Assembly: GCA_907165135.1 (NCBI GenBank)
Contig: OU015568.1
Span: 10,788,001-10,852,000 of the forward strand
DNA: 64,000 nt
Source: Oikopleura dioica
Taxonomy: Eukaryota; Animalia; Chordata
Direction of reading: 5' to 3'
Shown here: in pieces, positions 2,634 through 52,654 of the stretch
Layout: each line of letters begins with the position of its first letter
Position numbering within the stretch: the stretch's first letter is position 1
Made by a program: the position numbers and the translations under genes
The notes under the pieces: model-generated
Database searches by the model: none
What the model was told of the DNA's origin: nothing
The model's input: only the letters and a program-made list of their open reading frames with translations

Positions 2634-5600
2634 ATGAAAACGCGTTTCACAGTTCTCGACATAAAAGCAGCGTTGGCCGAAATTCGGGCGAATTTATTGC
2701 ATCACTATGTTCTGAATATCTACGACATAGATGCGAAAACATATCTGTTGAAATTACGAAAATGCGCTTCAAAGCATGTTCTTCTCTTCGAGTCTGGGAC
2801 CCGTGTTCATCCTACGGAAATGGAGTGGCCCAAGAACACAGCTCCTTCGGGATTTAGTATGAAGCTGAGGAAGCATTTGAAGGGGAAACGGTTGATAAAT
2901 GCTAGTCAACTTGGTTTCGATCGAATCATCGACCTTCAATTTGGAACATCAGCTTGTTTGGACGAGTATCATCTGATCATTGAGCTCTACGATCGTGGAA
3001 ACATCATTCTTTGTGACCAAGACTACACTATTCTGAATCTACTCCGAGCTAGAACAGACAAAGCTACGGACGAGAGATTTGCTGTCCGGGAAACATATCC
3101 AGTTGCACAGGCTCAGCCTTTGAAAGAGCCGTATCTATCTGTTGAAGAGCTCCAGGAAAACGTCAAGCCATCTCAAGTCCAAGGGAACAAGAAGAAAAAT
3201 AAGAACTTTACAATCGCCAAGCAGCTTAATTCAAGTCTAGGTTATGGAACTGATGTCATAGAACACTTCCTGATCGAACAGGGCCTTGACGTGGCCACAG
3301 CATCTGTTGTGCAAGACCCTGATGAGATTCTCGAATGCTTACAGAGCTGCTACGACTTTTTGAATTCCAACAAAACGAATTTCCAAGGCTACATATCGAC
3401 CAAAACCGCCGACAACGTCCTCCAATATGTCGATTATCAGCCCTTTCTCTTCCATCAGTCTCAATCAGATAGTACCATTGAGCTTGAAAGATTCTCCCTT
3501 GCTGTTGATAAATTCTATGGCGAAATACAGTCGCAAAAGGCAGAACAAAAGATGGTCCAAGCAGAAAAGGCCGCAATGAAAAAGCTAGAAAATGTAAAGC
3601 TGGATCACATGAAGCGTCTCGAATCACTTAAACTCGCACAAGCCGATAATGTGAGAAAGGCGCAGCTAATTGAGATGAATTTGGAGCTCGTTGATTCCGC
3701 CCTAAATCAAGTGCGCTCGGCGCTCGCTTCTCAAATTGGCTGGGAAGAGATCGAGGAATTCCTCGAGGAGGGGCAGGATGAAGGCTCGAGTTTGAAATTG
3801 TATGTTATTTGAAATAATTTATTTCCTCGTCTCACATGAAGAAAAAATTATTCAAACTTGAAAAGGCGATCCGGTCTCCATCGCGATTAGAGAGCTCAAA
3901 CTAAAGACAAATCAGATTGTGATGATGTTGAGCGAGCCTGATTACGATGACTCCGACTCGAGCTCAGAGGACGAGGACGGTAGCCAGAGCGAATACAACA
4001 AATCTGCGCGTGTTACGGACGGCTCAGATAAAATAATTAAAATAGCGATTTCGTCGACGCCGGTTCGTCTAGCCTCAAACAATTCTAATTCTCAGAGCGA
4101 TTGAATTGATAATAATTACTGCGGCGCCTCTGGGTCTTTCTTATTTTATTTTTATAGCTCATGTTGAAAAATTATAACTTCGTAATCTCCAGTTTACAAC
4201 TACGTCCTGAAGGAATAATTATACGCTTTGAATCCAGTTTTAGAGGAGGATTCATTTTTTTTTCTAAATTGCCTCGTCACAATGACGTTGTGTATAAACC
4301 GTTAATGTTTCCATCGTTATCGTAAATCTGTTATATTTTGGTCATTAATTACGTTGAGAAACTTTCGATATTTGCGTTTACGACATTTGTTTAAACAAAT
4401 ATGTCTGGAACTTCCTCAAAGTCTCCTTTTTTTGCTTCTTATGATTTATTTCTTGGCCACGAGCTGTCTGAGCCATCAATAGCCTTGACCTGTCTCTATC
4501 CGCGTTTGGCAATGCGAAAGCATTTTACGATTCTAAACGCGCCGCTGCTGACAAAGAGTCAAAAACCATTGACGCTAGTAAAAAGGCTTTGAAATCAGCC
4601 GAAAAGAAGACTAATGAAAGTCTCAAAAATATACAGACTGTTCGTCAAGTAAGTAGTTTTTTTACAAGAGCAAAAATTTTTGATGATATTGTGTAGGTCA
4701 CGAAAGTGCGCAAACAAATGTGGTTCGAGAAGTTTTTCTGGTTCATTTCAAGTGAGAATTACTTGGTTATTGCCGGCAAGGACGCTCAACAAAACGAGAC
4801 CATTGTCAAGAAATACTTGAAAAACGGCGATGTCTACGTTCACGCTGATATTCACGGTGCATCATCGTGCATTGGTAAGAATATGTTTCACTCTCCTTTA
4901 TTGTTTTAATTTCATGGAAAAAGTTCTCGTGCTTTGTTTTCAAATATTTATCCAAGGGAGGGCGAAGTATTCACATGTGTGCTGAATAGCTCTACTTCGG
5001 TTTTACTCGTTTACAAAAGATTTTTTTCAGTGAAAAATATTGACCCTTCCAAGCCGGTTTCGCCGGTAACGCTTCACGAAGTCGGACATGCCGCGGTCTG
5101 CCATTCGGCAGCGTGGAATGCAAAGGTACTCACCTCAGCATGGTGGGTACATGCCAATCAAGTGTCCAAAACGGCGCCGTCGGGGGGAGTACTTGACCAC
5201 TGGTAGTTTTATGATCAGAGGCAAGAAGAATTATTTGCCACCGAGTCAGCTCGTCCTCGGCTTTGGTTTCCTTTTCAAGCTCGATGATGCTTCTGTTGCT
5301 AGACATGCCGGCGAGCGGAGGATAAAAGGCCAAGCGAATGAAGTCGAAGAAGATGATATATCAGACCTTGTTGAAATCAAGGAAGAGAACGAAACCGAGC
5401 CCAAGTTAGAAGGCGAGAGTGATGGAGAATCTGACGGGAGGTATTAAATATTACTTTCCCGGCGCGTCCTAATAAGCGTTTTTATTAATCGCTCACAATA
5501 GATTTAGTGACGAAAAATCAGAAGCTCTCCAATTCCCGGATACAAAGATCGACATCAAGTATAATGTGGAGGAAGAAGTTGAAGAAATCGTCAATGTCGG

Positions 5601-6427
5601 TAAAGGTGCCGGAAAGCGAGAGAAGACCAAAGAGGAAAAGAAAGGTCGAGCGAAGCCAGCTTGGCAGTTGGAACATGAACAACAGAGAGCTGAAAAAGAT
5701 AAATTCCGGAAAAAGAGAGGCAAAGCTGGAAAAGAAAAGAAAATGAAGCAAAAATATGGCGACCAGGATGAAGAAGATCGTGCTGCGATGATGGAATTCC
5801 TCGGTAGCGCAGGGGCGAAAAAACAATCAAAGAAATTCCAACGAGCGGAAAAGCGTGAGTTGAAGAAAGGTGGAGGTGCTCGTGGACAGAAAAAGGGGCC
5901 AAAAGAAAAGAAGGCCAACACTTTTGAGCGAGCAAACGAAGAACTGCCACCGCCTGAAGTGCTTCCGGAAGATCCAGATTGTAAAGCGGAAATGGTCATT
6001 GAGCAAATGAAAGAAGACGCGGACGAAGAGGAGATTACCAAGATGCTCGAAGAGGAAGGCTTTGTCGATGATGATGATATATCGATGCTCGACCAGCTCA
6101 CGGGCAAGCCAACAGAAGAGGATTTAGTCCACTACGCCGTTCCAGTTGTGGCACCTTTGTCGAGTTTGCGCGACTACAAGGTACTTATTGTTTAAAGGTT
6201 AAAACTGTAATCATTCATTTCAGTATCATATCAAATTCGTCCCGGGAACAGGCAAGAAAGGAAAATCGGCGAAACAGGCGGTTAGTATTTTCTGTGGGAA
6301 AAAGGAAGCGCGCCAGGTAGAGATCGACTTAATGAGGGCAGTAAAGGATGAAGACATGACCCACAACATGCCCGGAAAACTGAAACTCGCTGGACAGCAA
6401 GTGCAAATGTACAAAAAGAAACACTAA
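2634..6427 (+). CDS. NEMF: NEMF/Rqc2 ribosome quality-control factor
   Basis: N-terminus [12 protein letters not shown], then [73 protein letters not shown] and C-terminal [10 protein letters not shown]...[16 protein letters not shown]. Introns include GC-AG 3784-3865 and GG-AG 4017-4482. One extra G in a G-run near 5185 shifts the frame. Confidence 0.95.
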
Positions 6428-6557
6428 TGCTGCTTATCTATTTCATTTGCCTCTTCAAGTCACTCACTTCAAAGTTCTGTCGGTTCAAAGCTTTACAATA
6501 GGATAAATAAGTGATTCACAAAGTATTACCTATTTTATTTTTTCAGAGCATGGCTTT

Positions 6558-9500
6558 ATGAATGAATCGTTGAAAGGTTTAGCCGTGCCGGGCGTTCAAC
6601 GGCGCCCTAAATCGGCAAATATAGACTCGGACACACACTTGGGATACCAACAGCTAACAGTTATAATCAGGAAAAGTTCAAAATCTATTCTCATGTAATG
6701 TTCAAAAGGCTCAAAAAGGAACTTTCATCAGACGCGATAAAATTGGCTTCGGATTAACATTTGACGGGAATGGAGAAATAAAATCTGTAAGTAGTCCCTT
6801 TTTTCTCTCCTTTAATTGCGCCCAAAATCAACGATCTTTTCTGACACTGCCAGAAATACGCAGTAATTTAAGCAGATCTTGAAATACAGTTTTGATCAAG
6901 CGCAATGACCTGAAATGATCAGTGCATCTCTAATCGATTCTTACAAATCGCCCATTCGCAGAATACTAAGACTCCTTTTTATAAAATTATTCTTCCAATG
7001 CTTCGAAAGCTTTTGCTAGGAAATAACGACAAAACTAGAGATACTTATGGGAGAAGAAAAGAAGAGTCAAGTCATGTTCATATTTTTTTTTAATTTAAGT
7101 TTTCATCAAATATTGGTCGGGCCAATTTGGTCCATTCTAATTAAAAACATCATGAAAGGAATAAAAGATTCCGAAGACGATCTCTAGCGGGACTTCTGCC
7201 TCAACAGAATTCCAATTTCCTGGACGTACAAAATATCTCGTCTAGTGAAAGTAATCTTCGTCGGACTGCGACGGGATACTAATGATTTGTTCGAACATTT
7301 TTTGTTTATTCTGAGCAACTGACAGGGGATTATGTCTAAGTGAGCCTTTTTGTTGTTTTGCGCGGCGCGTTCCCCCGTCGGATAAGTTGAACGGCTTTGA
7401 TGAGCTCCCTCCCAGTCCAAATTAAGAGACAATGAAGCCCAGACGAAGATCGCTAGTGAATATCGAATATTTTCGGCAGAATGCGATGGAATCGTTTTTA
7501 AAATCAGTGAATAGATCTAATTCTAATTCATCGGGTACTCAATCGAGATTGGTGCGGCGGCGATGTACGATTTCTGAAATTAAATTTGATAAAGAGGTCG
7601 TCGATTGATTCTGAAATAACGAAAGGAAATAACCTGCATTATTATTACTTTTTAGATCGAGCCAGATTCACCAGCAGACCGAGAAGACATCCGAGTTGGA
7701 GATCGGCTTGTCCGGGCCAATGGTGTTCGTTTGGATCAGCTACCTCATCGTGAGGTGCAGCGGGTTCTGCAGGACTCTCGCGGTCACACGGAGCTAGTCC
7801 TGCTGCGCAGAACGAAGAGCATGGATTCCCGAGACTTGCGGCACGATATATCCGGTCCCTCGCATAATGCTGGTCATAGCCTGATAGAAAAGAAGCAGAG
7901 AGAACTTTTCCTCGTCGGTGCTATCGAGTGAGTCTTTTTCTTCAATCTGGCACTAGTCCAGTTAGTTTTTATGTAAAATTCATAACGTTAATCCGCCCAT
8001 TTCAGAAAGGAGAAGGAAGCACGCGCCTTTTTGTTGTCCAAATTGGCCGATTGCACTGACGATGAGTCGAGAGCGCGGGTGAATAGGGAATATAAGGAGA
8101 GCGAGACAAAAGAAGATCAGTATCGCCGCCAGTTATTATCCCTCGGTGCCGCCTCTGAAGGCCATGGTCTGAAAACACTCTCATTATCCCAATCGTTTGG
8201 GCTTATCCTCTACTTGTTCCATAGAAATGCGCTCAATAAACTTCTTTATCGCGAGCTATACGACTTGATGCTTGCCGCCAAGAAGGAAAAGGTCGATGGG
8301 CTGATCGATGTAAGTAATTTGTTAATTTAGCTGAGATAGCTTCCGGATTATCGAGAAACGAATACTTATCGGATTCCTAGCGTATCTACCGCGACTGTCT
8401 GAGCAAGGAGGGTGGGATCACTCTCTACGAGACTGAGCAAAGCTCAGACGAAGTAGAAGGCGGCGACACTTATTCAAGAGACATTGAAGAAGCCCAGCAC
8501 GCGATCGAAGAATACAAATCTCGAGATGACTTGGATCCGAAAATCGCACTTGAAAATTTGAGGAGCCGGGTCGACCAAGAGGTCCAAAACTATTTCGAAG
8601 AGTTTGAAGGTTAAATGTTGTCAGTCGATCAATTCCTTATTTTTGCTTTTAAGATCATCTTCAGGAAGAAAAGATCAAAAACCCAGGAATGAAGCAACCA
8701 GAAAATGACGAGATTTTAAAACTTGACGATGACTTCATGCAGTACATTCAAAACCCAACACCTCAAGCAGAAGCTACTATTCAAGTTCTGTGGGAAGTAC
8801 TTAGAGACAAGCTTCCGAAAAACTCCGTTATCACCAGAGAGGCAAAAAAGCGACGAACAACGTCGATGTTTATTCCGAATATGTCAAACATGTCGCGTTC
8901 CTTCTCATCAATATCAACTGCAAAGGAGTCAATAAAATCTCTCTTCTCAGAAACAAGAAAAGCACGAGACAAATCCGCCAGTTTCCACGTGACCTCGCCG
9001 CTGATGGAAACACCAACCGTCGAAACACCTTCTAGGCCCCTGTCGATGGATCAAGAATCAATCGAACAGGCGGAAGAACCAGAAATAGAAATAACACCGG
9101 AGTTTCAAATTCTACCTCTTGTTCCTTGGATTCACGATGTGAAACAGACGCATCCTGATTTTGATTTGTCATCTGTGTCAAAGGAAGAGCAAGGAAGACA
9201 AATGGTTATTCACGAGCTCATTAATGTGCATCACAACGCATCTGCGAAAGTCACCTTTATCAAAGAAATCTTTAAGGTAACTCTTCTTTTTTATCTCCTA
9301 CTCACATTTGCTTCTAGCCAAAAGTTCTTGAATTGACACCTCTCAAAGAGGGTGATGCAGTCTGCGAGAGTATCTTTCGAAATATACACGAGGCGAAGGA
9401 TTTCTTCGACGATCTAAGGGACCAGCTTGAAGCTAGAAAAGAAGAAGACGGCGCATGCATCCGCGGATTGGGCGACATTCTCTTCGCATTTTTCGACCTG

Positions 9501-10880
9501 GATTGTGAGCACGGCAAAAAGTTTCAAAGCGCCATGTCCAACTGGGTCTCGCGTGACTCTGAGTTTCTCAACTCGATGGACAAAATGAAGGGCATGAGCG
9601 GGCCAGATAATGACGATCCACTAGGCTTCTTCAGAGCGATATCATCAGCAGAGGCCGATCCAAGGTTGAATCGCCTCAAGTTCGGAGATATTATGATGGT
9701 GATCTTTCAAACACTGCCGAGATATCCGATGCTGCTCGCTCAACTACTCAAGTACACTGAAAAAGGTCCGCTCTAAAAGTTTTTCAATCGAGTCCAAAAG
9801 AATTTTAGTGGGAGAGGAGCTCCATGAAGAAAAGCAACTCTTGAACAAAGCTCAAAACGCAATCCAGCTTACGGTCGCTGAAATCAACAAACGCGCCGGC
9901 GAAGAGCAACTCTTATCTCGAATCAACCAAATTCTTCAATACCAAAACGTCGGCGACTTCCGCAAATATGTCGCGAAAATTAAGGACGACGACAGAGACA
10001 ACATCGTTTTGAAAAATTTCGGAGAACTGAAGCATCACTTGGATATCCATCAAATCATCAAATATGGCGATTGTAAGGTGCAGGCTATGCTTACCAGACC
10101 GGGGAAGAAGCCTGCTGATTCTGATGCAATGTATTTTTTACTCAACGAGTGGCTCGTTTTCTTCATTCAAAATAAAAAGGTAGCGTCATTGAATTGAATG
10201 TCCAAACTTATCACGACTTTAGTTGTTTTCGATATTAAAAATGGACCGTACTTTCTTCGTGTTTCCGATCAAAGATGTCCACATTCGCCAAGATCAAACG
10301 AACAAAAACTCAGTTTTCCTCCTTCATCTTCAAGGACTCCAGTACAAGCTCCAACTTCCATCATCCGACGATGCTTCTGACCTAGAGCTTACATTCAAGG
10401 CGCAAAAGGCTCTCATCGTTCCACCTGATACACCTCGTATCGCGGCATCACAAAGAATAAGTGGTGGAAAAGTTCAAGATCTTGAAAATGACGAAGAAGA
10501 GGAGGAAGATTCCGAGTCGTTGAGAGAAGCGGAGCAAGATGCTGTTCCGATTAATATTTCGCATCGACTTGATTCTGGTCCCCCTGAGCCGCCTCCAAGA
10601 AGAAATAGAGGAGGACAAGGTCAGAATAGCTCCGCTCACGAAGTTTCTTCCCCACTTACTTCCGATGCAGAAGGTAACTAACATCCTTTGCCCCAGAATT
10701 AAAAGTTCTTTAGAACAAGAAGAAGAGGAAAGCAGCTCACGGATACCTAGCAGATCGTCTCGCGCTAGAACGACCATCCGGCGGCCTACAACGCCAACTC
10801 AAGACGATTTTAATGAACCTTCAAAAACCGACTTGCTCGAAGAGCATCACGATGCAATAGAGAACATTCTCCCCACCTAA
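6558..10880 (+). CDS. ARHGEF12: PDZ-RGS-DH-PH RhoGEF (LARG / PDZ-RhoGEF-like)
   Basis: Spliced PDZ: LTVIIR|RDKIGFGLTFDGNGEIKS|IEPDSPADREDIRVGDRLVRANG. An RGS-like helical region follows, then DH with RQMVIHELI and AEADPRLNRLKFGDIMMVIFQTLPRYPMLLAQLLKYTE, then a PH-like region. First intron 6671-6731 is GA-AG. Paralog assignment (ARHGEF11 vs 12) is uncertain. Confidence 0.85.
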
Positions 10881-11717
10881 AAGACTCGCAAGAGGCGCTG
10901 GACGCTTTCGAGAGGCTAAAACTTACGTTTCTACATATGCGAAATTCATTTCAATAACATTATTCTTCTTTTCACTTATTTACGTTTATCTCTATTTACG
11001 ATCTTTTAAGTTTATGAAAAACTTTTCATATTTTTAAGTTATTTATTCCTACTGACCATTCTCTCCCTCCTTATTCTATTCTGCGAAAGTAAAAACCAAA
11101 GTTCCAAAAATACAAAAAATGTACAAATGTCGACTTTTCGAAAATACAAAAAAACTCAACAATTCTTTTTCTTCAACTGTTTCTTTTCTGCATGATAATC
11201 TAGTTCAAACACAAGGCCAAAGATATAAACAAATGAGTAAACGAAATAAAAATGTTCTCTTCTATGTTTTCAAGCATTGAAAAAAAGTCTTTGCCAAAGG
11301 AATAATAACAAAAGGTGAACGCAAAGAAAAATAAAAAAACTAGTGTTTTAAAAATGCCTTCATATTCACTAACAATGCCTCAGAAAAACCATCGAGCTAA
11401 AAACCTAACTATCTTTCTTATCAAAGCTATCTAACGGTTCTTCTATCAAATTTCGATTTTCAGTTATTTCACATTTTTTTCTTATTTGACAATCAGTTTC
11501 GCCAAAGCACCGAATTTTTTAACAAATCACCTTTTAAAAATAACGCCTTATAAAGTTATAATCTCACTACAAGTCAATTTCTAGTTCCTTTGTTTTGTGT
11601 ATCTTGTTGAATCTGCAAGTTCGAAAAAACTTAATCGTCAAAAAAATCTTGAGCCCTGCACTTCAAATCCTCCTTTCGGACTTTTTGTAAATTTTGCGTA
11701 GATTCTAGAGAAGGAAT

Positions 11718-13077
11718 ATGTCCAGGCGGTATGATGCGAAGACAACGACTTTTAGTCCTGAAGGTCGACTGTATCAGGTACTGTAATTTACCAGAGACAT
11801 ATGAAATAATATGAGTTCAAATTTAAGTTTGAGTAAATTAATTTTGCGGTGATGGAAAAGGTTTTGCTTTAATTTTACTTCCTTTTTGCTTGAGAATCCA
11901 TTTCTCGCAGATTTTGAGTTTTGGCCCACGTGCGCAAACGCTGCGCCGTGAAATGCGCTGACCAATGAGAGCGCGCGATCAGGAATTCATTCACTCGGGC
12001 TCTCCAAAAAACTCCTTCCGTAAAATGAATCGATTTTTTAATTCAAGAGATTTTGTCAAGAAATTTCCGTCATGATTTCCGCAAGGTACCGAATTTCAGA
12101 AATAGAGAAAATCATGAACGCACCTGGAATCGATAAAGTGTTTTTTATAGAAAATATTTGATTTCTTAGGTCGAATATGCGATGGAAGCAGTCGGCCAAG
12201 CCGGTACCTGCCTCGGTATTCTCGCTAAGGACGGCATCGTAATCGTGGCGGAGAAAAAGAACCAGCACAAGCTTCTTGACACGAACCCATCTGTCGCTGA
12301 GAAGATTTACAGAATCGATGATCATTTGGCCGTCGGCATCGCTGGCATCACTTCCGATGCCAACGCGCTCATCTCTCAGCTCAGACTTATTGGTAAGGCT
12401 CCTCTTATTCCTTCAATCAATTTATGATCCACTTTCAGCCCAGCAGCACCGTTTGGTCTACCAAAACCCTATGCCAGTTGAGCAGTTAGTCCGTCGAATG
12501 GCTGACAACAAGCAGTACTTTACCATGCACGGAGGTGTTCGACCCTATGGCGTTTCCATTCTCTACTGTGGTTGGGACAAGCATCTTGGCTTCCAGCTCT
12601 ATCAGGTAAATCCTCCCTAGTCTAATTATTCTAAACAGCGAATCCCAGGGTGACCCATCTGGCAACTACGGTGGCTGGAAGGCAACCTGCATTGGCGGAA
12701 GCAGCCAGTCCGCCACCAGCATGCTCGAACAAGACTACGACGAGAGCATGGACTTGGAAAAGGCAATCAACCTCGCCATGAGCATCTTCCTCAAGACTCT
12801 TGACACTCAGACTCTCAAGTAAGGCTCGCTTTGAGGGGTCGTTCGTTTACTTTTTCTAGCGCTGAAAAGATCGAGGTTTCTCTGATCAAACGGGTCAACG
12901 GCACCGTCCAGTACACTGTCATGAAACCAACTGACGTCAACAAATACTGCAAAAAGGCTGAAGAGGAAAAGGTATTTTAAATGTTCTTTCAGGAGCTCTA
13001 ACAACCGTTTTCAGAAAAAGAAGGCCGAGGAGGAAGAGAAAAAGAGAAAGGAAAAAGCCGCCTCGTCCAAGAAGTAA
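11718..13077 (+). CDS. PSMA4: 20S proteasome subunit alpha type-4 (alpha3)
   Basis: [20 protein letters not shown]|[22 protein letters not shown]...GITSDAN...[25 protein letters not shown]|[16 protein letters not shown]. Five canonical introns. Confidence 0.95.
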
Positions 13078-13249
13078 ACTGCCTAGCTGTACTTTTTTGT
13101 TCCGGTCTGTTCAGAAATTTATTATTGCTTTCGGGCCTTCACAGAGCAATTATCTTACATGTGTTCACTGATACATTTTTCGTAACTCACTAGTTTCTCT
13201 TTCTTTCAATTCTCGTTTTTAGAACTCGTAACCGGCTCTATAAATCAAC

Positions 13250-13989
13250 ATGGCCGACGGATTTGACGCAGTCAAGGTAAATTCCAACTTACAAAACATA
13301 CTCTAAATTATTCCCAGATCATCGATGGTTCCGGCCATCTTTTCGGTCGATTGGCCGCTGTTGTCGCCAAGCAGTGCCTCAACGGACAGAAGGTCGTTGT
13401 TGTCCGATGCGAGAACATGGTTATCTCCGGTAACTTCTACCGAAACAAGCTGAAGGTAAGCACATATGTCTCCACTCACATCACAACATCTTCCCTAGGT
13501 CCTCGAATACCTCCGAAAGCGACATCTCACCAAGCCTTCCCGAGGTCCCTTCCACGGTCGATCTCCCTCCAAGATGTTCAAGCACATCATCCGAGGCATG
13601 CTCCCCCACAAGACCGCCCGCGGTCAGGCTGCCTTCAACTCTCTTAAGGTTGACTCCAGAAGCGTCATAAACCCTTAACTAACCTTCTCTAGTGCTTTGA
13701 AGGCATCCCCGCCCCCTACGACAAGTGCAAGCGAGTCATCGTCCCATCTGCCTACAAGCAGATCAAGCTGAAGCCCAACCGAAAGTACGCTTCCATCGGC
13801 CGACTCGCCGCCGAGACCGGCTGGAAATACCAGACTGTCGTCGAGACCCTCGAAGCCAAGCGACAGGCCAAGGCTAAGGTCTACTTCGAGAAGAAGCAGG
13901 AGCGAGAAAACCAGCTCAAGGCCGCCAAGGAAGCTTGCGCCGCGAAGACCAAGGATATTGATGCTCAGATCGCCGCCTTCGGCTATTAA
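13250..13989 (+). CDS. RPL13A: 60S ribosomal protein L13a (uL13)
   Basis: [71 protein letters not shown] and [10 protein letters not shown]; canonical introns. Confidence 0.97.
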
Positions 13990-14069
13990 ATAAACTGTCC
14001 ATCTCCTTGATTGTCGATTGTGTTATTTGTTGTCTTTTCTTTCGCATGTATAATTTTCGTTGCAATAGA

Positions 14070-15919
14070 ATGCAGGCAGCCGGAGGAACGAGAAAAACCC
14101 GACGTCGGGAGCACCGCGGAGTAGGTGCAAAACATCGGAGGGTCGAGATCATCGAAGGAGCAGATTTTGAATGTCCAGTGCAGCTTTACAACACGCTTCC
14201 GATGTACGAAGACGTCGACCTTGAGCACATAAAAGAAATCACCAAGCAGCGCCAGAGAGCTCTCAACATTATTGACTGTAAGTTCGGAAGATATGGGAAA
14301 GTTAGTAAGCGTTTTCAGCGGTTCATGCGGACTCGGAGGACCAAGATGCTATCAAAAGCAAGCTTGACTTGAAGTTCAAAGGCGAAAAAGTATCACCTCA
14401 CTCGGATTAGACGCATCGAACTCGAACGAAGAAGAGCGAAAGAATGATTCGATTTCTCACTGGATGCTCAAACTGGCGTTTTGCAAGCAGCCAGATTTGA
14501 AGCAATGGTTCGTGCGCAACGAAGTCAACCTCTTCCGATATCGATTCAATAAGATGAGTTCGAAGGGAAAGATACGATTTTTCGAGGTTTGCGAGAAGTC
14601 ATTTTTCAAGGATAAACTTTTTGTAGCTGTCGAAATTCAATCTCGAGAGCATCGAAAAAGGTGAAATTACTGGCGAGTTGGAAGCAAATTTAAATGACTG
14701 CTCTAACATAACAACTGCGTCGGCAAAAACCTGGTATAGAATCCCCTGGACACAGGTTGGGAGACTTGTTACACGACGTAGCATCTTTATTGATGAGGGA
14801 AAAGGTAATGACTGCGCGTAACGCCAGAAGTTATCTCGAAATTTGCAGCTTATGTGCCAGAAGAAGACCTGATCGAATTCGTTGTTGGAAAGTTCCGGTC
14901 TGAATGCAATCGATGGCTCGCAGGACTTGCCAAAAAGTTCGATGTTATGATGGAGAACGAGCAAGAACGTCTTGGTAACTGATTTTTATCTTACAACAGG
15001 TTGATATTCTTTTCTAGTGCCGATTTTGAAGTCGTTTGGCAACACGATTGCGGACGCTGATTTCTCATCGACTGAAGGTCGCTTGACCATCAACTCTATT
15101 GAAACGATGCGAAAGACATCCTTACCTCCTTGCATAAGACAGCTTTTGGATGCACTTCAAGTTGATAACAAGCTGAAACATGACGTAAGAATTCTCTATT
15201 CGATAAGATATTAGCGGCAATTCAGGGACGAGTACACTTGTGGGCATTTTTCAAAGCCGCCGGAATGCCTCTTGAAGATGCGCTAAAGTTCACATTCACG
15301 CGGATGACAGCTTATGCGAATCCCGAGAAAGAGTTCAAATACAACGTTCGACACGTTTACGGAAAAGAAGGAGGTGGAAAAGGAGTCGGTATGTTTGCCA
15401 GTTTATTTTCCTCTTGATAATTTTCTTTTCGTACAGGAGCCTACGGATGTTCTACAAAGATCAAAGCGTTGCCCGTTGAAGGACAATACCAAGGTTGTCC
15501 GTTCAAGCACCAGCGAAACTTGAAGCAGCAGCTTCGCAACTGGGGCGTCAAGGAGGTTGACATCGACAAGATCAAGAAAAAGGCCGATGACGGTCACTAT
15601 CAGGTCGCCTGCAATCAGTTCTTCAAGAGCACTCACAAGGACAAGGAGGAAAAGCTCGATTTGATCACAATCCTTCATCCGAACAATTTCTTCGATCAAA
15701 GTTTCGACTGGAACACCGGCGAGCACAAACTGCTCAAGGCTGAAGACACGGCGAAGAGTGAAGCTATGGAAACATCCACCTATGAGTAAGTGATGAAAAA
15801 ACGAGAATGATTCTAATTCATTTAGGCCGGCTTGGGAAACAACTCTCCCAATGTCCCAGGCGGAGAAAGAATCACAGAGCCAAAAGGAGTTCGAGCAGGA
15901 CGACTTCATGGAAGAGTAG
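14070..15919 (+). CDS. PRIM2: DNA primase large subunit
   Basis: RKNDSISHWMLKLAFC...WFVRNEVNLFRYRF, SLPPCIRQL, KLKHDGRVHLWAFFKAAGMPLEDALKF, YNVRHVYGKEG, YQGCPFKH and GHYQVACNQFF (Fe-S cysteine region). One 1-nt frameshift near 14370. Confidence 0.93.
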
Positions 15920-16133
15920 AATAATCACCAGATCACAATCACAATTAGTTACTTGTATTATTCACCTCATTTACACACTGCCAATACACGACTGCCTTTA
16001 TTGATTTTTAAAATCTATCAATCAAAGAGGTTCAGAAATTTTTGAACTTCTTTGATGTCCAAGTACTTGTTATTTACAAACAAAAATGAACTCTTACTTG
16101 GCCAAATTCCGTCACAAGATTGATACTCGCAAA

Positions 16134-16726
16134 GACGCGCTTTTTTTAAGGTGGTGGAGGTTTTCTAGCCCACTTGCGCCTTATAAACCCTAGAACACCA
16201 TACCTTTTCGGAATCAGCAGGAAATTCTAAGAACTTTGACCCTTTTAGTTTTCGAAAATTCCACTTCCGGTCCGATTCTAGAGCCGGAAGTTGGCGAAAT
16301 TTAGGAGTTAGGGTAAAGTTTGACATATCAAATTGATGCTCAGAAGATTTCCTATAATTTAAAGCAAGAATCGATCCCGACCGCGGTCAAACCAACCTGT
16401 TAAAACTGAAAAAAAAATCATCAATTTATGCGTTTTTTCATAATTTTACCGGTTCGATTGACCACGTTTGGGACTGTTTCATCTGACATATTCATTTCAG
16501 GATGACTCAAAACGTTCCGAGCATCAATTTGATATGTCAAACTTTACCCTAACTCCTAAATTTCGCCAACTTCCGGCTCTAGAATCGGACCGGAAGTGGA
16601 ATTTTCGAAAACTAAAAGGGTCAAAGTTCTTAGAATTTCCTGCTGATTCCGAAAAGGTATGGTGTTCTAGGGTTTATAAGGCGCAAGTGGGCTAGAAAAC
16701 CTCCACCACCTTAAAAAAAGCGCGTC
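16134..16726. mobile_element. Non-autonomous foldback/MITE-like element with 208-bp apparently perfect terminal inverted repeats
   Basis: 16134-16341 is the reverse complement of 16519-16726 (GACGCGCTTTTTTTAAGGTGGTGGAGG ... CCTCCACCACCTTAAAAAAAGCGCGTC). The spacer is about 177 bp with no ORF, and the element is flanked by AAA on both sides. Confidence 0.85.
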
Positions 16727-16985
16727 AAAGCAAACTGAATATAATTACCTTCTCAAATAACAACTCAGCAGGTTTACTGACTAGAGTTATCTCCAATGTC
16801 AAGTTGGCAGGGCAATATTTTTGGAATCAGAAGAGTTATTGTTATTTCGTCATGATTTGACTTTTCAAGGGAGGAAAATCCACCTCTGTTGTGCTGAATT
16901 TATCGCACAATAAAGATATCTAACGAGCTGATGAACGAGAGCTGTAATTCTTAATAAGAGCCGGATCAAGTTGTGTTCGTCTGAG

Positions 16986-17441
16986 CAGGGTGGAACGTTG
17001 GGGCAAAAAAACTGAATTTGGCCGCCCGATTGCCCGCCCGATTAAAATTTTCTTTATCGGCGCCGCCCGATTGCCGCCCGACTTTTTGCCCGCCCGATTT
17101 GCCCGGGCGCCGACTTTTGCCCGGAAATTTCGGCAACCCCCAAACCAAAAAATATGTAAATTTATTGAAGAAAAAGGATTATTTTGTATCCCGAAGGAAG
17201 AAGGGCACTCATGGAGAACCGAAACCGGACGTTTTAAATAAAATTCCAGTATTTATGTCCCTTTAGATACCATTTTTTCTTCTGGGCGCCGACTTTTTTT
17301 CCGGGCGCCGATTTCTGCCCGATTGCCCGACTTTGCCCGATTTTTACCTCGTAAAATCGAGCCTTGCGCCGCCCGATTTGCCCGCCCGCCCGATTTTTTG
17401 CCCGGTTTGCCCGACTTGCCCGGTCCCAACGTTCCACCCTG
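16986..17441. mobile_element. MITE (hAT/P-like termini) with 17-bp TIRs and 7-bp target-site duplication
   Basis: TIR CAGGGTGGAACGTTGGG ... CCCAACGTTCCACCCTG. Direct repeat GTCTGAG at 16979-16985 and 17442-17448. Many subterminal GCCCG(ATT/ACT) motifs; no coding capacity. Confidence 0.88.
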
Positions 17442-18217
17442 GTCTGAGTAATTGACTGATTCTCAACGTATCGTGTTCTCGCAGAACCTGAAAGAGCACA
17501 TCTCGGTATTTCATAATCAAATTTGATGGAGATGATCATGTCTTCATCTTTAGAAACATAAATCTTTGTAATCGGCAATGCCTTGCGGTTGTCCTTAAAC
17601 TCATCAATCTACGAGTTTATGTGCTGACATATTCAAATGACTTTCCTGCGGTTTCTATGAGAACTTCTTCGGGATATTTTGATATTCGGTTACTGCTCGA
17701 ATTTTGTGCGGCTTCATATGGAAAGAACAAGGCATCCTTGGATCTTTCCGAGTCTGGAATCATCGATGATTCCTGTCACAGGAAACGATTCGTGGTTGAT
17801 CTCGTCGCGCCGAGCGGAACACGAGTACCTCGATAACCCGTCTCAAGTTCAAAGGCCTCCGAATTCATCGTCCCAGACTTCAATGAGTTGATCCAGGCCA
17901 TCAGCTCCAGTCAATCATCCCTAATTGCAGAACTCATACGGATATTTGGAGCAAACCTTCGCGTCGTTTTTTGTTTGTCCAAAGATTTAACCGGAGCTAG
18001 AGACGGGATCGCACTCGCCTCCGGCAACGAGTAAGCGCTCAAGTTGTGTGATAAAAATCCAAGTGAACTTTTAATAAATAACTCGGCGCCGCGGGAGATT
18101 GAAATGTCCAGAGATCAACGTTCCGTTTAAAATCACGGCGAATGGAAAGAAACAACGCAGACAGCGAACAGAGAAAAAACAATAACGACTACGACTAAAT
18201 CGGATTAACGAGGCACG

Positions 18218-18883
18218 ATGAAGGTGCTTTACGTTTACGCACTCCTTATCGGATTCACCACCGGAGCTAAGGTTTTCACGAAGAAAAATGGGAAGAAGCG
18301 AGAACATCATGGTAGGGTTAACAATTTTTACGGAAACGAACTCGTGACTTAGTGACGAGAACATCCACAGATGAGTTCTCCCCTGAATTCAGCCTGGAGG
18401 ATCCAATGGCAATTCAGGCAAAACGACGAAAAATGACGATGAAGCTCCGAAGGCAAACGGAGAGAATGATCAAAGCTGCAAGAAAAGCTAAAGGTTTCAT
18501 ATAATAAAATCGATGTCAATTAAACTTTTATTTAGCTAGAGCAGTTAGATCCTCAAGAAGACGATCCAAGCGACACAGGTCAAAAAATCGTGATAAGAAC
18601 GGCCGCAAATCAAGGAGACATCGAGAACCAAAGGAAGAACGAAAATTTAACGATCGATTTTCTGGAATCAGCAAATTGAAAAGCTTTGAGTACGATAGAA
18701 TAAGCAGAGTGAACCAATTCTATCCTTTATTTAAGCGAGTCTGAGGTCCTCGGTACACGACGAGGAAGAAAAGCTGAAATGGCGCGAAACGAGATGCGCG
18801 ATTTCCGACAATTTAGACCACCAGGCTCATTCAACATGCGATTCTCCAGACTCTCTCCAAACGGTTATCGATACCGACCTTGA
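18218..18883 (+). CDS. Small secreted, highly basic orphan protein (4 exons)
   Basis: Signal-like MKVLYVYALLIGFTTGA. Three canonical GT-AG introns join an open frame rich in K/R (RSSRRRSKRHRSKNRDKNGRKSRRH) that ends RYRP*. Confidence 0.65.
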
Positions 18884-19140
18884 TTTGAATGTCAAACAAA
18901 TTTCCTTATTTCTACCTGCAACATAAATATATTTTCAAGCTTGAGCTCTGTAGATTACTTTTCTTTCCAAAAAATCATTCATCTGATCATGAAAATGCCA
19001 GCCTGCCAGGGCTGATTGTATTTGAAAATATTGACAAAATGAGCGGAGAGTGGTAATTTCTTTTGATAAATAAACACAGTAGGGCGGGGGCTTTGGGTAA
19101 AATCAGTATCTTTTGACTTTGAGAGTCCTGACTTGAGAGA

Positions 19141-23200: not shown

Positions 23201-23271
23201 TACACATTCACACCATTCAATTTTTGATGGTACACACTTTACCCCCTTTCCCCTTTTATGCGCCAAAAGAG

Positions 23272-40541: not shown

Positions 40542-40543
40542 GG

Positions 40544-40999: not shown

Positions 41000-41246
41000 G
41001 TTCGAATGGTTGATGCTTGACCGGTCACTCTGAATATATACTGTTAATTTATGCAGAATACACTAGATGTCAGCCTTTGTAAAAAGTATAAATAGCAGAA
41101 CGGTATTAATTTATAACCATTCCGAAAAAAAGAGAATCAGAGAAGGCACGAATCAAGAAAATTGATAAAAAATTCAGGTAAATAGGAAAATTACGAGTCG
41201 CAGCTTTTTTAATTGAAAAAGAGTAGTGAATGATCGCTACTGAATA

Positions 41247-43160: not shown

Positions 43161-43236
43161 TTTATCTGTCCTTATTAAACTGCAATGCGCGCACTTACAA
43201 ACACCTGTGTTTTTTGATTTTTTTTTAGAGACATTG

Positions 43237-43732: not shown

Positions 43733-43747
43733 ATAAATTTTTTTTAG

Positions 43748-45592
43748 ATGGCGGAAACATTTGGACAGCTTCTTTATTTGACTGATAAATCGGCCACAGA
43801 TGATCCTTATAAAGGAGAAATCTGTGTTGGTCGATTGGGGAGTGAAAATACTCCAGGAGTGATTTTTTTTGATGTTCCGGAAGATAAAAGATCGCTCAAG
43901 CCGGAATTGTGCATGTTTACGTATAGGCTTTTGGTAGATTCGAATTACGTTCCGGATAATGGTTTGCACGCTAAAATGATAAGAAGACTGGTCATTAGAC
44001 TTTGTGATAATCGTCTCTTTGATTCGTTTGACTTGCACGAGTATACGTTTATCAATCAGTTTATAACAAAACTGAACATGTCTGAAATGACTCAAAATAC
44101 GGAACTTTTTCCAAGTGGACATTGGGACAGTAGGGAATTGAATACTGATGAGCTGGAGGATCATTCTTTGTATCACAATAACAAAAAAATTGTCGAGCAT
44201 CGACATTCTTATGCGGAAAAGATTTGGAAGCCAAAGTCAAATCTTACAGTCAATACAGATAGTGAGGGTATTTCATGCGAGTATTTGGTTTACGAATATG
44301 ATATAAGAGCGCCGCTTGTTCATGGGTTGGCTAGACAGCCACGCGTCCTTCCGGCAAATACAAGAACTTCTTTTGAAGTTGAGTTGAATACTTTGGCAAA
44401 TTTTTTGATGAAAGTATCCGACTATCAAAAGTATCGAACATCTACAGACAACAGTTCTAAGTTTGTATATCCTTTCAACAAGCACCTTAAAACCACTCGC
44501 AAGAACAAAGCGCATGCGACTGCGGCTGTTTGTGACTGCGCAAATTTTTATAAAAAAGGAGGACATGGAAAGTACACCCATGTTTATAAAACAAAGTCAA
44601 ATGGAAAGTACGATTTTGAAGAAGAAGTTGATGAGACAATTTTCAGCAAGGACAATGACAACGTCAATTGGAAAGCGCATACAGTTTTTTATGATGAAGC
44701 AGATTTGGCTCGAGAAACGATCGATGGTAAAGATTACCTTGTTTTTTATATGGAAAATGTCTTGAAAGAAAATGAATTGGCGAATCCAATAGACTTTATG
44801 CTTGAATCTGTTTTTGTCAACGCGGCAAAGATTGAAAGACCATTGACTACGGGTAAATCAGGTGAAGTGAGTATTCCTTTCTTGTATCCAAAATTTGTGG
44901 CAAAAAGATTCAAACAAGGCTTGCGAACCGACACTTTTGAGGTGTCGTCAGGAAAAGTGAGAATTTCATAGTTTGTTGTTGTTGTTGTTGTTTCAAATTT
45001 TCATTTAATAACAGGTCCGCTTCCACATATGCTCGTTTTGACTGGAATGCCAAATGATCAGTTTACATCTCCTTCTTTTGACACGTGCTTGACAAAAACT
45101 ACGATGAACGATCCTGCCTTTAAAATCAAGGAATTTACAGTTTTTGTCAATTGGAGAACACATTTTAGAACGCCATGGAGAAAACCCCTTGATCATTATC
45201 TAAACTATCTGAGACACAATGGCAGATATGCAAACAAGTCGCTCGGAGGTGGAATGGATTTTTTCAAGTTTCAAAACGAAAATTGGATGGTTCCATTGTG
45301 CTTTGATGACGATATCGGAATGTCGGGCACAGTCAACGTCAAAATCACCTTTGAAAAGCCTGTTGAAAAATTTGGAATTTGCTCGTTATGAAGATTCCGA
45401 TTGAGGAGCTTCATCTTAATAGAACACGAAACGGTTGGTTATTATTTCACTTTTTTTATTATCCATTTTTTAGAAGCATCTGTCATGCAAACAAGTGTGA
45501 CTGGTACAAAACGAAAGACTGATGACTTTTTGCTGTACAATGAAATCGCAAAAAGGCGAATGAAAGAACATCTTGAATCTGTTGAAAAGTAA
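43748..45592 (+). CDS. Maverick major capsid protein (PY, double jelly-roll type), about 580 aa
   Basis: Maverick-MCP-like segments: APLVHGLARQPRVLPANTRTSFEVELNTLANFLMKV, FMLESVFVNAAKIERP, FEVSSG|PLPHMLVLTGMPNDQF, YLNYLRHNG, SGTVNVKITFEKP and WNLLVMKIPIEELHLNR. Introns GA-AG 44952-45014 and GT-AG 45434-45473; 1-nt slip near 45370. Confidence 0.8.
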
Positions 45593-45678
45593 TTGTAACT
45601 GCTCTAATAAGCTCCCTCGTTGAATAATAAATAAGACAGCCCTTTTTAAGCGCGAGTTTAGTAATTGCAGGTGTAGAA

Positions 45679-48600: not shown

Positions 48601-51600
48601 TCGAAAAGATTTTCGCCTATTCTGAAGAGGCAAATTGCTATCAATGTGATCCCGATTGTGAAGAAGCGCAAGAGTTTTTTCGCTTTTCGATTGTCGATTA
48701 CGAGGCAAGTTTGACACTTTGGCGAGAAATTGAAGCGTCAAATGAGCACCATCGCATGACAATGCTCATGTTTCTGATGAATTATAATTTCAATGACGTG
48801 CGATTGCTTCGAGCGGCGATTGAAGCCTACTCTAGAATGTTTGTTCAGTCGTTCAACGTCAGCATTCATACAGATTTGAGCATTGCCAAAATCGCTCAAA
48901 ACATAGCCATGTCAATGTATCAGCCCAAAGTGCCACCAATTATCTCCATTCCACCTCAAATGGATTTTGTGTACAGAGATTGTCGCAATAAATTGAGTGG
49001 TGGCATTGTCCAAGTCTTTCATCGAGCGGTGTACCTCAATGGGCCCGATGAAGACGTTCCAGTGGCTGCTTATACAGTGCCAAATGGGTGTACTGTTTTG
49101 GCTCTGATTTTGTACGATTATACGTCGCTTTATCCTTTTGCAGTGAAGCAATTTTTGCCATGTGGCCCTGGCATTTGCTACTATCCAAGCGATCGACTGA
49201 TGGAGCTCAAACGGCAGCTAGAAGCAAAAACAAAAAACGTTGAAACGCTTGAAGCCGGATCAAAGAGAACAAGTTCTCTGATTGAAGATGTTTCAGGCAG
49301 TGATAATTCTGACGACGACTACGATGATATTAGCCACTGTAGGAAATCTGTCGACGATTCAGAATTTCGACAGCGGTTTTCATTCAACGATTTTCGCGAA
49401 GTGAGCGGCAACCTCAGTCGAAGATATTACTCGTATGGAATGTTTGCTCAGCGTGAAAATACAAACCTTGATTCTATTCGCTACTTGGAGTACTTGAATT
49501 GGGATCCCCAAAGAGAGTACTCTGGTCGCATCCAACACGCCTACAATTATCAAGAAAAAAAGATTGGAAGATTCAGTGTTGATGGATACTTTGAGAGTGA
49601 CACGTGCATCCCTGGCACAAATATTCCAGTTTGCACGATTATTGAATTCAATGGATGTACGATTCATTGGTGTCCTTGGTGTAAGACGAATCCGTGGCGA
49701 GGCCGTCGCATCAAAGAATACTGTCCAGTGGAGAAAAAACGCATTCTCAAAGTGTTGACGCTAGACGAGCTACTGGCGCGTGATAATGCGAGAATGCATG
49801 AAATTGTCGAGACAATTCGCGCACGAGACAAGATTGTCGATCCGGGTCAGGACACGAGTTGATTATTCTTTTTTTCTTTCTTATTTTGCTGTTGCTGCTG
49901 ATCAACTCGTGGTAGCTACCCTCGCCAAAGCATCAAGGCCCGCGCAATTTTTTTCATAAAATTAAAATCAAATCAATGTGTCGCTGGATGCGCAAATGGA
50001 CATGGCTGTGCTCGGGTCAGCTCAGCCACAGTAAACCCTACTCGCCCCTGTATCCGATGCTGTTCAAATCTGCTCAATCGTGGCGAAATGGTGGTAGTCA
50101 AGATGCAGGAATCACTGCCGACGAGTTCAAACAGTGGGTAAAGCGCCGAGATCCACGCCACCCATCAGAATCTGCCTTTCATGGTCTGGCAATTGTGGAT
50201 TTACTTTCACCAGCTTCCGTAATCGCCGATCATGCAGATTTGCCGCCAATTTTTGACAAAAAAATTCTCACCGCTGACGATTTCAACGGTCTAATGCGCA
50301 CCAGCTTGTCTGAGAAGGAAATTGAGCGAATGTTTCCCCAGGCGGAAAACGTGCTCTGCTACCATGCTTCCAATTATTTGATCACTGGCGAAATGCTCGA
50401 CTATCTTCAGAATAAAGGCGTACTCTATCGAGTGCACTACTTTACTCAGTATTTTAGAGCGGCTCCGTTTGAGCACTTTGTGGAAAAATTGGCCGCCGAG
50501 CGCATCAAAGCTCACATGGCGAAAAACTCTGTCCTCTCGCTCATCATCAAGCTACTAATGAATTCGATGATTGGCCGTTTTGCGCTCGCCGTCTCTCGCT
50601 TCCTGTCAACTCGCGTCGTAGATAGCTCACAAATGGCGCAAATGCTGAGAACGCCAATGCGCCGCGGTACCAAGCACCTTCGCGCCGAAGATGTCTCACT
50701 CGATCCGCTGCATGAAGTGACGCTCAACAAGCGCAACGTCACCGAAGACTTGGCCGTCCACATTCAAAATTTTGTCTATTTGGGACGCGGTTGTACTTTT
50801 TTCCTTTTCCGTTTGCTAGTTCCAAGGGGCCGGGCAAGCGCCCGGGGGTGGGACCTCCCCCCCAGGTCCCGACCGCCCGGGCGGCAGTTTAACGTAAATG
50901 ACTTTCAAAAAGGCATTTTTTAATTTTTTTAAACGTATGGGAGCCCGTATGGGAGCCCGTATGGGAGCCCGTATGGGAGCCCGTATCAACCAAAAAGGCC
51001 GCCAAAACCAACGAGAATATAATCAAAAACAAGGAAGCAGTTATCAATTCACACGAGCGGCGACGTACGTCCCGACGGCTACACAGCAATCAGAAAATGA
51101 AAAGCCTGAAGAAAAAGGTTCGAGAGAAACTTGCCAAAATTCTGGAAGAGCCATACGAAAAGCCATTACCGCCGCCTCCGATTCCAGCGCACGGAATTGA
51201 GCCGCCAGCGGCAGCGCCACTAGCGTCGCAGCCACAACTACCACCGGGACCACAAAAAGGTAAAGAGCGAGTCAATTTTGAAAATTAACGAGTCTAGAAA
51301 AACCTCTTCGCCCATTAACTTCGATAATTGCAAAGAATCCAACCGAAACCCTTCAAAAACAACTCTTCCTTCCAGACAATTGGCCGAAATATCGACTTGC
51401 GCCACCGGTCAAATACGCTTATCCAAAGCAAACACTTCTCGGCTGTAATGGGGAACTGTGTCTCTCCTGTGGAAAGTATTTTGATGCAGAATACTATTTG
51501 GAAATTGATAGATGCATTCGCGAGCAAATTATGCAGAAAAAGGACTTGTGTTTTCCGACGCGCGCACCTCCTCACGCCTTTTTGGATGAGCCGATTCTAC

Positions 51601-52578
51601 TTGTCAATTGTGGACACATAATCTGCAACTCCTGTTTGATCAACAAGGCGGCTCCAGTTCGTGTCAATACGCACACAGTCTACATGCACGACTTTCCATT
51701 TGTTATCGATCAAGAAGACATGGCCAAGATGCTCTGCCCGTTCTGCAAGTCGATCTTCAACTGGGACGGAGTTTATCATTATTAGGAAAACGTATTTTTT
51801 CGTACAACCGCTTTACAAGAATTCAAAACTGCACATGTTTAAATTTGTAGACGTTTTAAAGAAATATATGCGGCCGGGCTCTTATAGATTTTGTTACTGC
51901 GACACCGATTCTCTCATGTTGGCACTTGATAGTAAAAAATTGGACGACTGTGTTGCTGAAAAATACAAATCCGAATGGATAAGCAAGATCAAGCCCGCCT
52001 GGTTTGCAAAAACAGAGTGCCCCATCTCCGAGAAAACGCCCGGCCTGCTTAAAGTTGAAGGATCCCTTTCGGCTGGTTGGTACTTGGCATGCACGCCAAA
52101 ATGCTATCTAATGGCAAAAACGACGCACCTCGACGAAATGGAAAGAAAAATTCTTCGCTTTGCCAAGAAATACTCTAATGGTGTTTACTCGGAACAGCGC
52201 GATTCTGATGCCAAAGAAATCCTCGCAGATATGACGCTTCTTGAGCGCAGCCAAGGCTCAAAAACTCCTTACAATATTGTCAAAAAATCATCCAAGGGAT
52301 GCAATCTCGACATAAAGCTCAGGTAACTCGACAAACGAGGGAAACTATTTTTTTTTTGTAGTCTTTATGCATACATGTGGAGTGTTTTTGGCTGTGATAT
52401 GAGAAATCGTCTCGAAAAGCCCATCACTTCCTTCCAAATGGATAGAAAGCGCAATCGAATGAAGACCACCACAATGCAAAAGAGAATAATGAACCCTCTG
52501 CTCAAGAAGCGACACGTTTGCGACGATCGTATAAGCACTCTTCCCCTTTTCAATTCTGTTACAAATCAATTTTTGTAA
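45679..52578 (+). CDS. polB: Protein-primed family B DNA polymerase, about 1,900 aa, 4 exons
   Basis: Exo I VVFDIECL, exo II SWCGETYD, KGSYPYEW, exo III YNFNDVRLL, SGGIVQVFHR, motif A YDYTSLYPF, nuclease-like insert QHAYNYQEKKIGRFSVDGY...IEFNGCTIHWCPWC, motif B KLLMNSMIGRF, motif C YCDTDS and C-terminal KKRHVCDDRISTLPL. Introns at 49851-49915 (GA-AG), 50783-51819 (GG-AG) and about 52323-52360 (GT-AG). One G-run slip near 46083. Confidence 0.92.
50935..50986 (+). repeat. 12-bp tandem repeat GTATGGGAGCCC x4.3
   Basis: Exact copies start at 50935, 50947, 50959 and 50971, followed by a partial GTAT. Confidence 0.95.
51097..51785 (+). CDS. RING-finger (C3HC4-like) protein nested in the PolB intron
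   Basis: Exon 51097-51259 and GT-AG intron 51260-51297 join in frame to ...ELCLSCGKYF...EPILLVNCGHIICNSCL...MLCPFCKS. The frame is open upstream through the VWEP repeats, so the true start may be near 50900. Confidence 0.8.
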
Positions 52579-52654
52579 AGCTGTTTACGAAAAAATACGT
52601 TAATAAAAATCGTTGCTAATTTTACCCGAATATTTTTGTTTAGATTGAGCAAAC

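Follow-up and report, generated by a model that had tools for sequence, protein, structure and literature searches.

Seven of the eight predicted introns with a non-GT donor (GA, GC or GG) in a 64-kb window of the Oikopleura dioica genome, the window being the whole stretch of DNA that was analyzed, have ends complementary to each other, and this is a genuine pattern in the window. The explanation to which we give about an even chance is that these are G-N..AG introns of the U2 spliceosome, with 7-13 bases pairing between their ends at a register of 2-5, whose stems probably came from terminal inverted repeats (TIRs) and were likely kept to aid a weak donor. Splicing at the exact junctions, the transposon origin and any role for the stem are what we infer from the DNA sequence.

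Most predicted non-GT introns in the window have complementary ends

Introns were counted as stem-closed if their ends could form a helix without breaks that contained 7 or more Watson-Crick pairs, G.U being allowed. This helix was found in 7 of the 8 corrected non-GT introns versus 2 of 79 GT-AG introns (Fisher p=5e-8), which upheld, within the window, the enrichment over GT introns that a preliminary description of this DNA had proposed to look for. The controls were hand-annotated, hand-picked GT-AG introns, mostly without RNA verification; 83 were tried and four that failed to snap to GT-AG were dropped. The proportion was 7/7 without the serpin intron and 8/10 after adding two uncertain candidates chosen blind to stems, and the candidate non-GT intron at 32308-32367 was without a strong stem. 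Among length-matched GT-AG controls (≥55 nt) the helix occurred in 1 of 14 (p=4e-4 for the length-matched test), and stricter pairing (Watson-Crick only, 6-bp cut) gave 6/8 non-GT versus 7/79 GT-AG introns. The sole strong stem among the canonical controls was a 10-bp terminal inverted repeat with register 8 in the CDC25 intron (26259-26426, forward strand). Three stems were individually weak by shuffling (RhoGEF p=0.056, MCP p=0.034, ARHGEF9 p=0.016).

All eight inverted repeats quoted in the preliminary description were present at the coordinates it gave, and the geometry it had described near both intron ends was recovered, with stems starting at +3 to +5 and ending 4-8 nt before the intron 3' end. 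Registers of the seven stems (3' position minus 5' position) were 2, 4, 4, 3, 5, 2 and 4, a range of 2-5 that is narrow under a uniform box (p=0.002); three share register 4, in agreement with the claim of three identical pairing registers. The claim that the stem sequences all differ also held, as the 7-13 nt arms were unrelated among the window introns compared, with no shared end motif, and 0 of 42 cross-pairings reached 7 bp when arms were swapped between different introns. Fewer than 1% of 4897 random G-N..AG pairs attained 7 Watson-Crick pairs. All eight corrected introns begin with G followed by A, C or G and end with AG, and donor positions +3..+6 of the non-GT introns scored -4.5 to 1.8 bits versus a canonical mean of 2.1, measured on the window's own GT consensus. 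The short cases (60-82 nt) have low-complexity interiors and intact arms.

Predicted non-GT introns in host genes

Both candidate introns in NEMF lie on the forward strand. The 82-nt GC-AG intron at 3784-3865 has an 11-bp terminal helix (+3/-5, one G.U, pair probability 0.86-0.90) and a 5-bp direct repeat at its junctions; the 466-nt GG-AG intron at 4017-4482 has a 10-bp helix (+5/-9, pair probability 0.89-0.97) and is without a direct repeat. Both junctions are gap-free against P0002 and P0003, proteins of relatives encoded on contigs too short for introns, and the public gene model P0001 omits the intron at 4017-4482.

In the PDZ-RhoGEF gene, a 61-nt GA-AG candidate (6671-6731, forward strand) has a 7-bp helix (+3/-7) that is weak in the predicted fold (pair probability 0.03-0.34), along with a 5-bp direct repeat. 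A rival GT-AG intron at 6695-6731 is in frame and adds 8 codons, and since a homologue search found no match at E 1e-12, this rival stands. The 76-nt GA-AG intron of the ARHGEF9-like gene (29514-29589, reverse strand) lies within the SH3 domain and forms 9 of 10 pairs (+5/-8). With it removed, SH3 continues in frame and the downstream piece matches ARHGEF9 structures; the helix was absent from the predicted folding ensemble.

The preliminary description had also claimed that all eight introns restore protein motifs. Seven fit homologues or domain motifs, and the exception was the serpin gene, where the proposed 29-nt stem-closed intron (20215-20243) breaks the frame, puts a stop codon at residue 369 and removes the C-terminal end of the serpin. 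Its 6-bp repeat is exonic and occurs by chance. The corrected GA-AG intron, 60 nt at 20244-20303 on the forward strand, has only a 5-bp helix (register 4), which was absent from the predicted folding ensemble. Removing it gives a single 434-aa open frame with a C-terminal piece that is serpin; a first structure search with the upstream piece returned unrelated matches only. The corrected serpin intron is a counter-example, having a GA donor and little stem.

Across the set, homologues or domain motifs pinned down five junctions without recourse to the stems, and in predicted folding only four stems dominate, three not being the dominant fold. RNA reads over 1-20000, which were dominated by another gene and a diverged lineage, came from runs 90-95% alike; the joints listed (15 of 137) were all in PSMA4 or RPL13A and none was at the introns studied. 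Runs X1-X4 were excluded from evidence because of their small shares. The reads differ from the assembly by 1 nt in a homopolymer at 5180.

Interruptions in proviral genes

A proviral gene with a product that is capsid-like (MCP) by ESM Atlas features (0.95), with a low recognition score and no Pfam match, contains a 63-nt GA-AG interruption at 44952-45014 (forward strand). Its 12-bp helix includes 2 G.U pairs (+4/-9) and was absent from the predicted folding ensemble. No in-frame GT-AG rival was found for this putative junction.

Two interruptions on the forward strand split the proviral PolB gene, and the PolB pieces flanking either one abut in homologues. The first (GA-AG, 65 nt, 49851-49915) forms 11 perfect pairs (+3/-5, pair probability 0.98), a helix that can be extended to 13, and is absent from a relative, L001, whose DNA has an empty site. 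The second (GG-AG, 1037 nt, 50783-51819) has a perfect 10-bp helix (+5/-9, pair probability 0.99) and contains a GC-rich hairpin and a nested RING-finger ORF (51282-51785, forward strand; Pfam zf-RING_5 E=1.3e-5, under the curated cut-off). An inverted copy of its 3' end, 29-30 nt with two differences, lies at the PolB stop (52573-52601, reverse strand) and is predicted to out-compete the 5' arm (-33.3 vs -18.7 kcal/mol); given this copy, the PolB stem may serve a viral function at the DNA level. Self-splicing or a known structured RNA family was rejected for 49800-52700, where 0 Rfam matches were found at E up to 1.

The second PolB interruption occupies a position shared among relatives. Out of 18 homologues with the motif, the match ends after the same residue in 11 and runs through without a break in 7 proteins that are more distant and may derive from spliced RNA. 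The next residue is A, V, E or D in all 11 break-bearing homologues and G in the window copy, all specified by GNN codons, and these read-through residues imply GG, GC, GT and GA donors. Eight Polinton-like polymerases that form a clade, with 44-60% identity, have this position in common, and the eight break-bearing rows all fall to the same side of a 97/97 branch in a tree that leaves out P0121, P0138, P0139, P0140 and P0141 (near copies or without the motif); hits P0125 and P0133 were dropped as unrelated. The break-bearing P0136 groups with the continuous rows, and given this placement it is possible that an intron inserted repeatedly at one PolB site. The common position of the second PolB intron with varied donors is new here.

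With neutral change assumed at 0.5 per site in each arm, 10/10 pairs would survive with p ~3e-4. Because the interruption appears old and shared and its stem is still perfect, upkeep is favored over mere decay. Tested with degenerate codons on P0127, the stem fared no better than shuffles, an uninformative outcome. Seven scans of viral contigs for the DNA of break-bearing PolB relatives found no locus; one metagenome scan yielded L001, which stops before interruption 2.

Features relating to a probable transposon origin

Terminal inverted repeats lie near both ends of 7/8 non-GT introns. Direct repeats of 5 bp flank 2/7 stems (NEMF 3784-3865 and RhoGEF), and equally long ones were found in 1/79 GT introns. 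Within the window, none of the arms belongs to a repeated family of sequences. Direct plus inverted repeats in two introns and the empty L001 PolB site would fit insertion.

Comparison with known intron systems

Fritillaria and Amoebophrya have non-canonical introns for which an origin from TIRs has been published, and for Euglena there is a published stem code that has been tested. In O. dioica, the same species and class of intron as the window cases, 11-12% of introns are non-canonical, often AG|GA, and the available portions of these reports do not mention end pairing or register (PMC4122922, PMC8008620, PMC7072748). Our literature search, with incomplete coverage of key papers, found no end-pairing rule for O. 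dioica introns. In this species, Denoeud and colleagues reportedly described in 2010 a few dozen candidate introns that bear inverted repeats and derive from transposons.

Fritillaria borealis, also a larvacean, has U2-spliced non-canonical introns with ends derived from TIRs/MITEs, but these ends are mostly AG-AC/AG-AT and carry YAY signatures, and their recognition is credited to duplicated U2AF and snRNA m6A (PMC11282704, PMC13326754, bioRxiv 2025.08.15.670264). The window cases are instead G-N..AG, with unrelated arms and direct repeats mostly absent. Euglena nonconventional introns resemble them in having spacers of constant length (3 nt and 5-6 nt) and ends that pair, which in Euglena has been shown to be necessary. 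They differ in having a CDG/CHG motif, in not needing G..AG and in being removed by machinery that is unknown (PMC12501133); the window introns are motif-free with spliceosomal-looking termini. Euglenid-type membership was rejected, the window intron ends being without the CDG (+4)/CHG (-8) motif and all G..AG. Amoebophrya introner elements are described as having 8-20 nt inverted repeats that join intron ends and are enriched in non-canonical introns (PMC7789003), and dinoflagellate Maverick-Polinton proviruses contain introners (PMC11957031). Those occur in repeated families whose direct repeats measure 3-5 nt, whereas each window case is unique within the window and one viral position appears old and shared.

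Discussion

The preliminary description had offered either a structural code or transposon relics. Each has evidence, two direct repeats on one side and the old perfect PolB stem on the other, and the two are not mutually exclusive. In the mechanism we propose, small DNA transposons would supply intron ends through their terminal inverted repeats, and the stem would form on nascent RNA with G-N and the last 4-8 nt left free. It could then hold the weak donor beside the acceptor, substituting for U1 base-pairing in site selection. Later unwinding would be needed, as the stem covers donor +3 to +14 together with the pyrimidine/branch region. U1 and U2AF would normally bind less well where a stem lies over the donor and the pyrimidine tract, which counts against a role for the stem.

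Alternatively, transposons may have inserted many times, recently and independently, and left the stems as passive relics, with a permissive larvacean spliceosome accepting AG|G-N donors unaided by structure; we consider this less likely than not. Newly gained O. dioica introns are 3-fold richer in non-canonical introns (PMC4122922, citing Denoeud 2010), and passive origin would also suit the direct repeats at NEMF 3784-3865 and RhoGEF, the lack of PolB interruption 1 in L001, the GT-AG intron that likewise carries a 10-bp terminal repeat, the three stems not predicted to form and the little-stemmed serpin intron. However, the stem is perfect at an old PolB position common to relatives, arms are intact although interiors look shrunken, the register is narrow, a repeated family is absent from the window and 5/7 are without a direct repeat.

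Reader selection plus misplaced junctions in an error-prone long-read assembly could account for part of the pattern, which we judge improbable. One junction in eight had been put onto a chance exonic repeat (serpin), RhoGEF has a GT rival, the homopolymer at 5180 differs by 1 nt in reads and the controls were hand-picked; yet five junctions were fixed without reference to stems, random G-N..AG pairs rarely match the stems, and enrichment persists with the stem-blind cases added. More improbable still is a hairpin that has the intron excised as in SOS splicing (AKAP17A, CAAP1, RTCB), either outside the spliceosome or in a hybrid reaction. SOS splicing is triggered by inverted-repeat pairing of any sequence, a likeness to the window stems, and its hybrids with the spliceosome rely on a single canonical site, but it is described as imprecise and spliceosome-independent and shown with 54-nt repeats (PMC12779559). 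Arms here are 7-13 nt, all cases start with G and end with AG, and conserved motifs demand exact joins.

More tentatively than for the U2-spliceosome reading, and with less than even confidence, we suggest that an RNA-structure code may define the ~1-in-9 non-GT introns of O. dioica. A stem of 7-13 bp, free of sequence requirements and set at register 2-5, would replace U1 pairing, let the second donor base drift (T, C, A, G), be under selection and be used by resident Polinton-like viruses, with one perhaps regulating the polymerase via a competing downstream helix. Larvacean splicing research currently targets U2AF and snRNA modification rather than pre-mRNA structure. If the stems are merely relics, the Fritillaria introner story would be extended to O. 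dioica. If the cis-acting stem rule is true, it would be the first such code for the chordate U2 spliceosome, parallel to Euglena, would give better gene models (one such intron is missing from the public NEMF model) and would explain how transposon ends turn into lasting introns.

Pairing of intron ends

The hairpin pattern is real in this window, with one case corrected. The preliminary description had listed eight hairpin-closed introns with non-GT donors, and seven survive with their stems (two in NEMF, one each in RhoGEF, ARHGEF9 and the capsid-like gene MCP, and two in PolB), while the serpin interval 20215-20243 was wrong and gave a stop at residue 369. Removal of 20244-20303 (GA-AG) gave a single 434-residue frame with the C-terminus of a serpin. 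As controls, 83 introns were chosen by eye from reading frames, and 79 snapped to GT-AG with both sides open. A helix was counted if it ran unbroken, tolerating G.U, through 7 or more Watson-Crick pairs and started at most 8 nt from the 5' end and at most 12 nt from the 3' end. It was found in 7/7 surviving cases, or 7/8 with the corrected serpin, compared to 2/79 GT-AG controls (p=5e-8 for 7/8 against 2/79), bearing out the proposal that non-GT ends in this window pair beyond those of GT-AG introns. The helix occurred in 1/14 controls of at least 55 nt (p=4e-4), while cross-paired ends of different introns reached 7 bp in 0/42 combinations and random G-N..AG pairs in <1%. All statistics are drawn from the 64-kb window alone.

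The registers of the seven stems (3' minus 5' stem position) are 2, 4, 4, 3, 5, 2 and 4, a range this narrow having p=0.002 under a uniform box, and the three cases described as sharing one register do so at 4. The sole strong stem among canonical controls, in CDC25, has register 8. Four of the seven count as strong, with a shuffle p of 0.001-0.005 and an ensemble probability of 0.86-1.0; in RhoGEF, ARHGEF9 and MCP the stem is weak, and it does not dominate the predicted folding.

Support for the junctions

Removing NEMF 3784-3865 and 4017-4482 leaves an open frame that aligns gap-free at both junctions to the homologues P0002 and P0003, whose 3.0-kb contigs would also be too short for introns. 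The public model P0001, which NCBI assigns to O. dioica and to which NEMF exon 1 is 100% identical, contains the first intron and misses the second. Removal of ARHGEF9 29589-29514 makes the SH3 domain continuous in frame, and the pieces flanking PolB interruptions 1 (49851-49915) and 2 (50783-51819), each read separately, abut in homologues. For the candidate MCP junction, no in-frame GT-AG rival intron was found. For RhoGEF 6671-6731 a competing GT-AG intron adds 8 codons, and a homologue search found nothing. None of the eight junctions is among the 15 of 137 RNA-read joints listed, all from two highly expressed genes. Two candidate non-GT introns with uncertain junctions were also noted, 21782-21834 (8-bp helix, register 1) and 32308-32367 (no helix).

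Genomic setting

Compact host genes occupy the window up to about 33500, followed by an intron-rich Polinton/Maverick-like provirus (about 34000-64000) with an rve integrase, a packaging-ATPase-like gene and a protein-primed PolB assigned by Pfam, and a capsid-like gene assigned by ESM Atlas features. Many provirus genes have ordinary GT-AG introns of 38-68 nt, and relatives of the provirus are present in further O. dioica gene sets. Frame breaks at homopolymers in NEMF (5180-5186), PRIM2 (about 14376), CDC25 (about 27578) and ARHGEF9 (about 29273) are probably assembly errors; at 5180, reads from a relative differ by 1 nt. Two intergenic palindromic MITE-like elements (about 16135-16725 and 16985-17445) and a large inverted array of short tandem repeats (about 23270-24510) were seen by eye. 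Thousands of reads share a loose 5' end at 13221, before RPL13A, as expected of trans-splicing, and we take it to be the spliced leader.

Origin and mechanism

Donors are weak beyond +2 (scores -4.5 to 1.8, canonical mean 2.1). In the mechanism that we propose, and to which we give about an even chance, the U2 spliceosome would cut at G..AG, and the stem would bring acceptor and donor together, stand in for part of U1 recognition, and then need opening, as the stem lies over both the pyrimidine tract and the site of U1/U6 pairing. The stems might instead be passive relics, a less likely reading. A transposon origin is favored by 5-bp direct repeats adjoining the NEMF 3784-3865 and RhoGEF stems, by the absence of PolB 49851-49915 from L001, the metagenome DNA of a relative, and by a threefold higher frequency of non-canonical introns among newly gained O. 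dioica introns, as stated in a review (PMC4122922). A table in PMC3443670 places Oikopleura under intron gains by transposon insertion. The direct repeat is missing in 5/7 stem-bearing introns, and no repeated family of these introns was seen in the window.

Selection of cases combined with mis-annotation is improbable: stem-bearing cases may have been preferred in the preliminary description, and one of them, the serpin, was wrong, but the helix is found in 8/10 once the two uncertain candidates, found stem-blind, are included. Least probable is excision resembling SOS splicing, the spliceosome-independent removal triggered by paired inverted repeats.

The hairpin-closed introns of the window would work like introner-derived hairpin introns, and are similar in geometry to the Euglena code yet outside that class. 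No end-pairing rule for O. dioica introns was found in the portions covered of PMC11282704, PMC7072748, PMC9860276, PMC8008620, PMC12130899, PMC12501133, PMC3443670, PMC7789003, PMC4122922, PMC12779559, PMC13326754, PMC11957031 and bioRxiv 2023.05.09.539028 and 2025.08.15.670264; inverted repeats in O. dioica introns may be described already in Denoeud 2010 (reportedly so) and Henriet 2019, supplements included.

A shared intron in PolB

Nineteen PolB relatives were examined, 18 with the motif before interruption 2. Matching ends after the same residue in 11/18 (several being gene models or near copies), while 7/18 continue into the downstream motif. A tree of 15 rows has a 97/97 branch with eight break-bearing rows, 44-60% identical to the window copy, to one side of it; the break-bearing P0136 sits among continuous rows. 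Judging from these sequences, an old origin of the position is therefore probable. The window stem is still perfect, while read-through sequences of relatives differ. Such survival has p about 3e-4 on the assumption that each arm took 0.5 neutral changes per site, and a perfect stem at an old shared position favors its upkeep. Replacement of the intron, or repeated insertion at the site, would be an alternative.

Within interruption 2 there is also a GC-rich hairpin at 50816-50895 (-40.5 kcal/mol, a value without shuffle control), and 50936-50985 is made up of a 12-nt tandem repeat. The read-throughs of P0123, P0124, P0127 and P0137 are likewise Pro/Gly/Arg-rich. A 30-nt inverted repeat surrounds the last PolB exons (51789-51818 and 52573-52601). 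Its downstream copy, which repeats the 3' end of interruption 2 in inverted orientation, is predicted to out-compete the 5' arm of the intron in pairing across the acceptor, and may be a kinetic switch or a DNA-level signal. For the upkeep reading this copy is a caveat, as it hints at a role in regulation or at the level of DNA.

Just past the breakpoint, all 11 break-bearing relatives have one of A, V, E and D and the window has G; all of these have GNN codons, which would imply that a single position carries GC, GT, GA and GG donors. Of the new leads, the strongest is this PolB intron, common to several relatives and with its second donor base free to vary.
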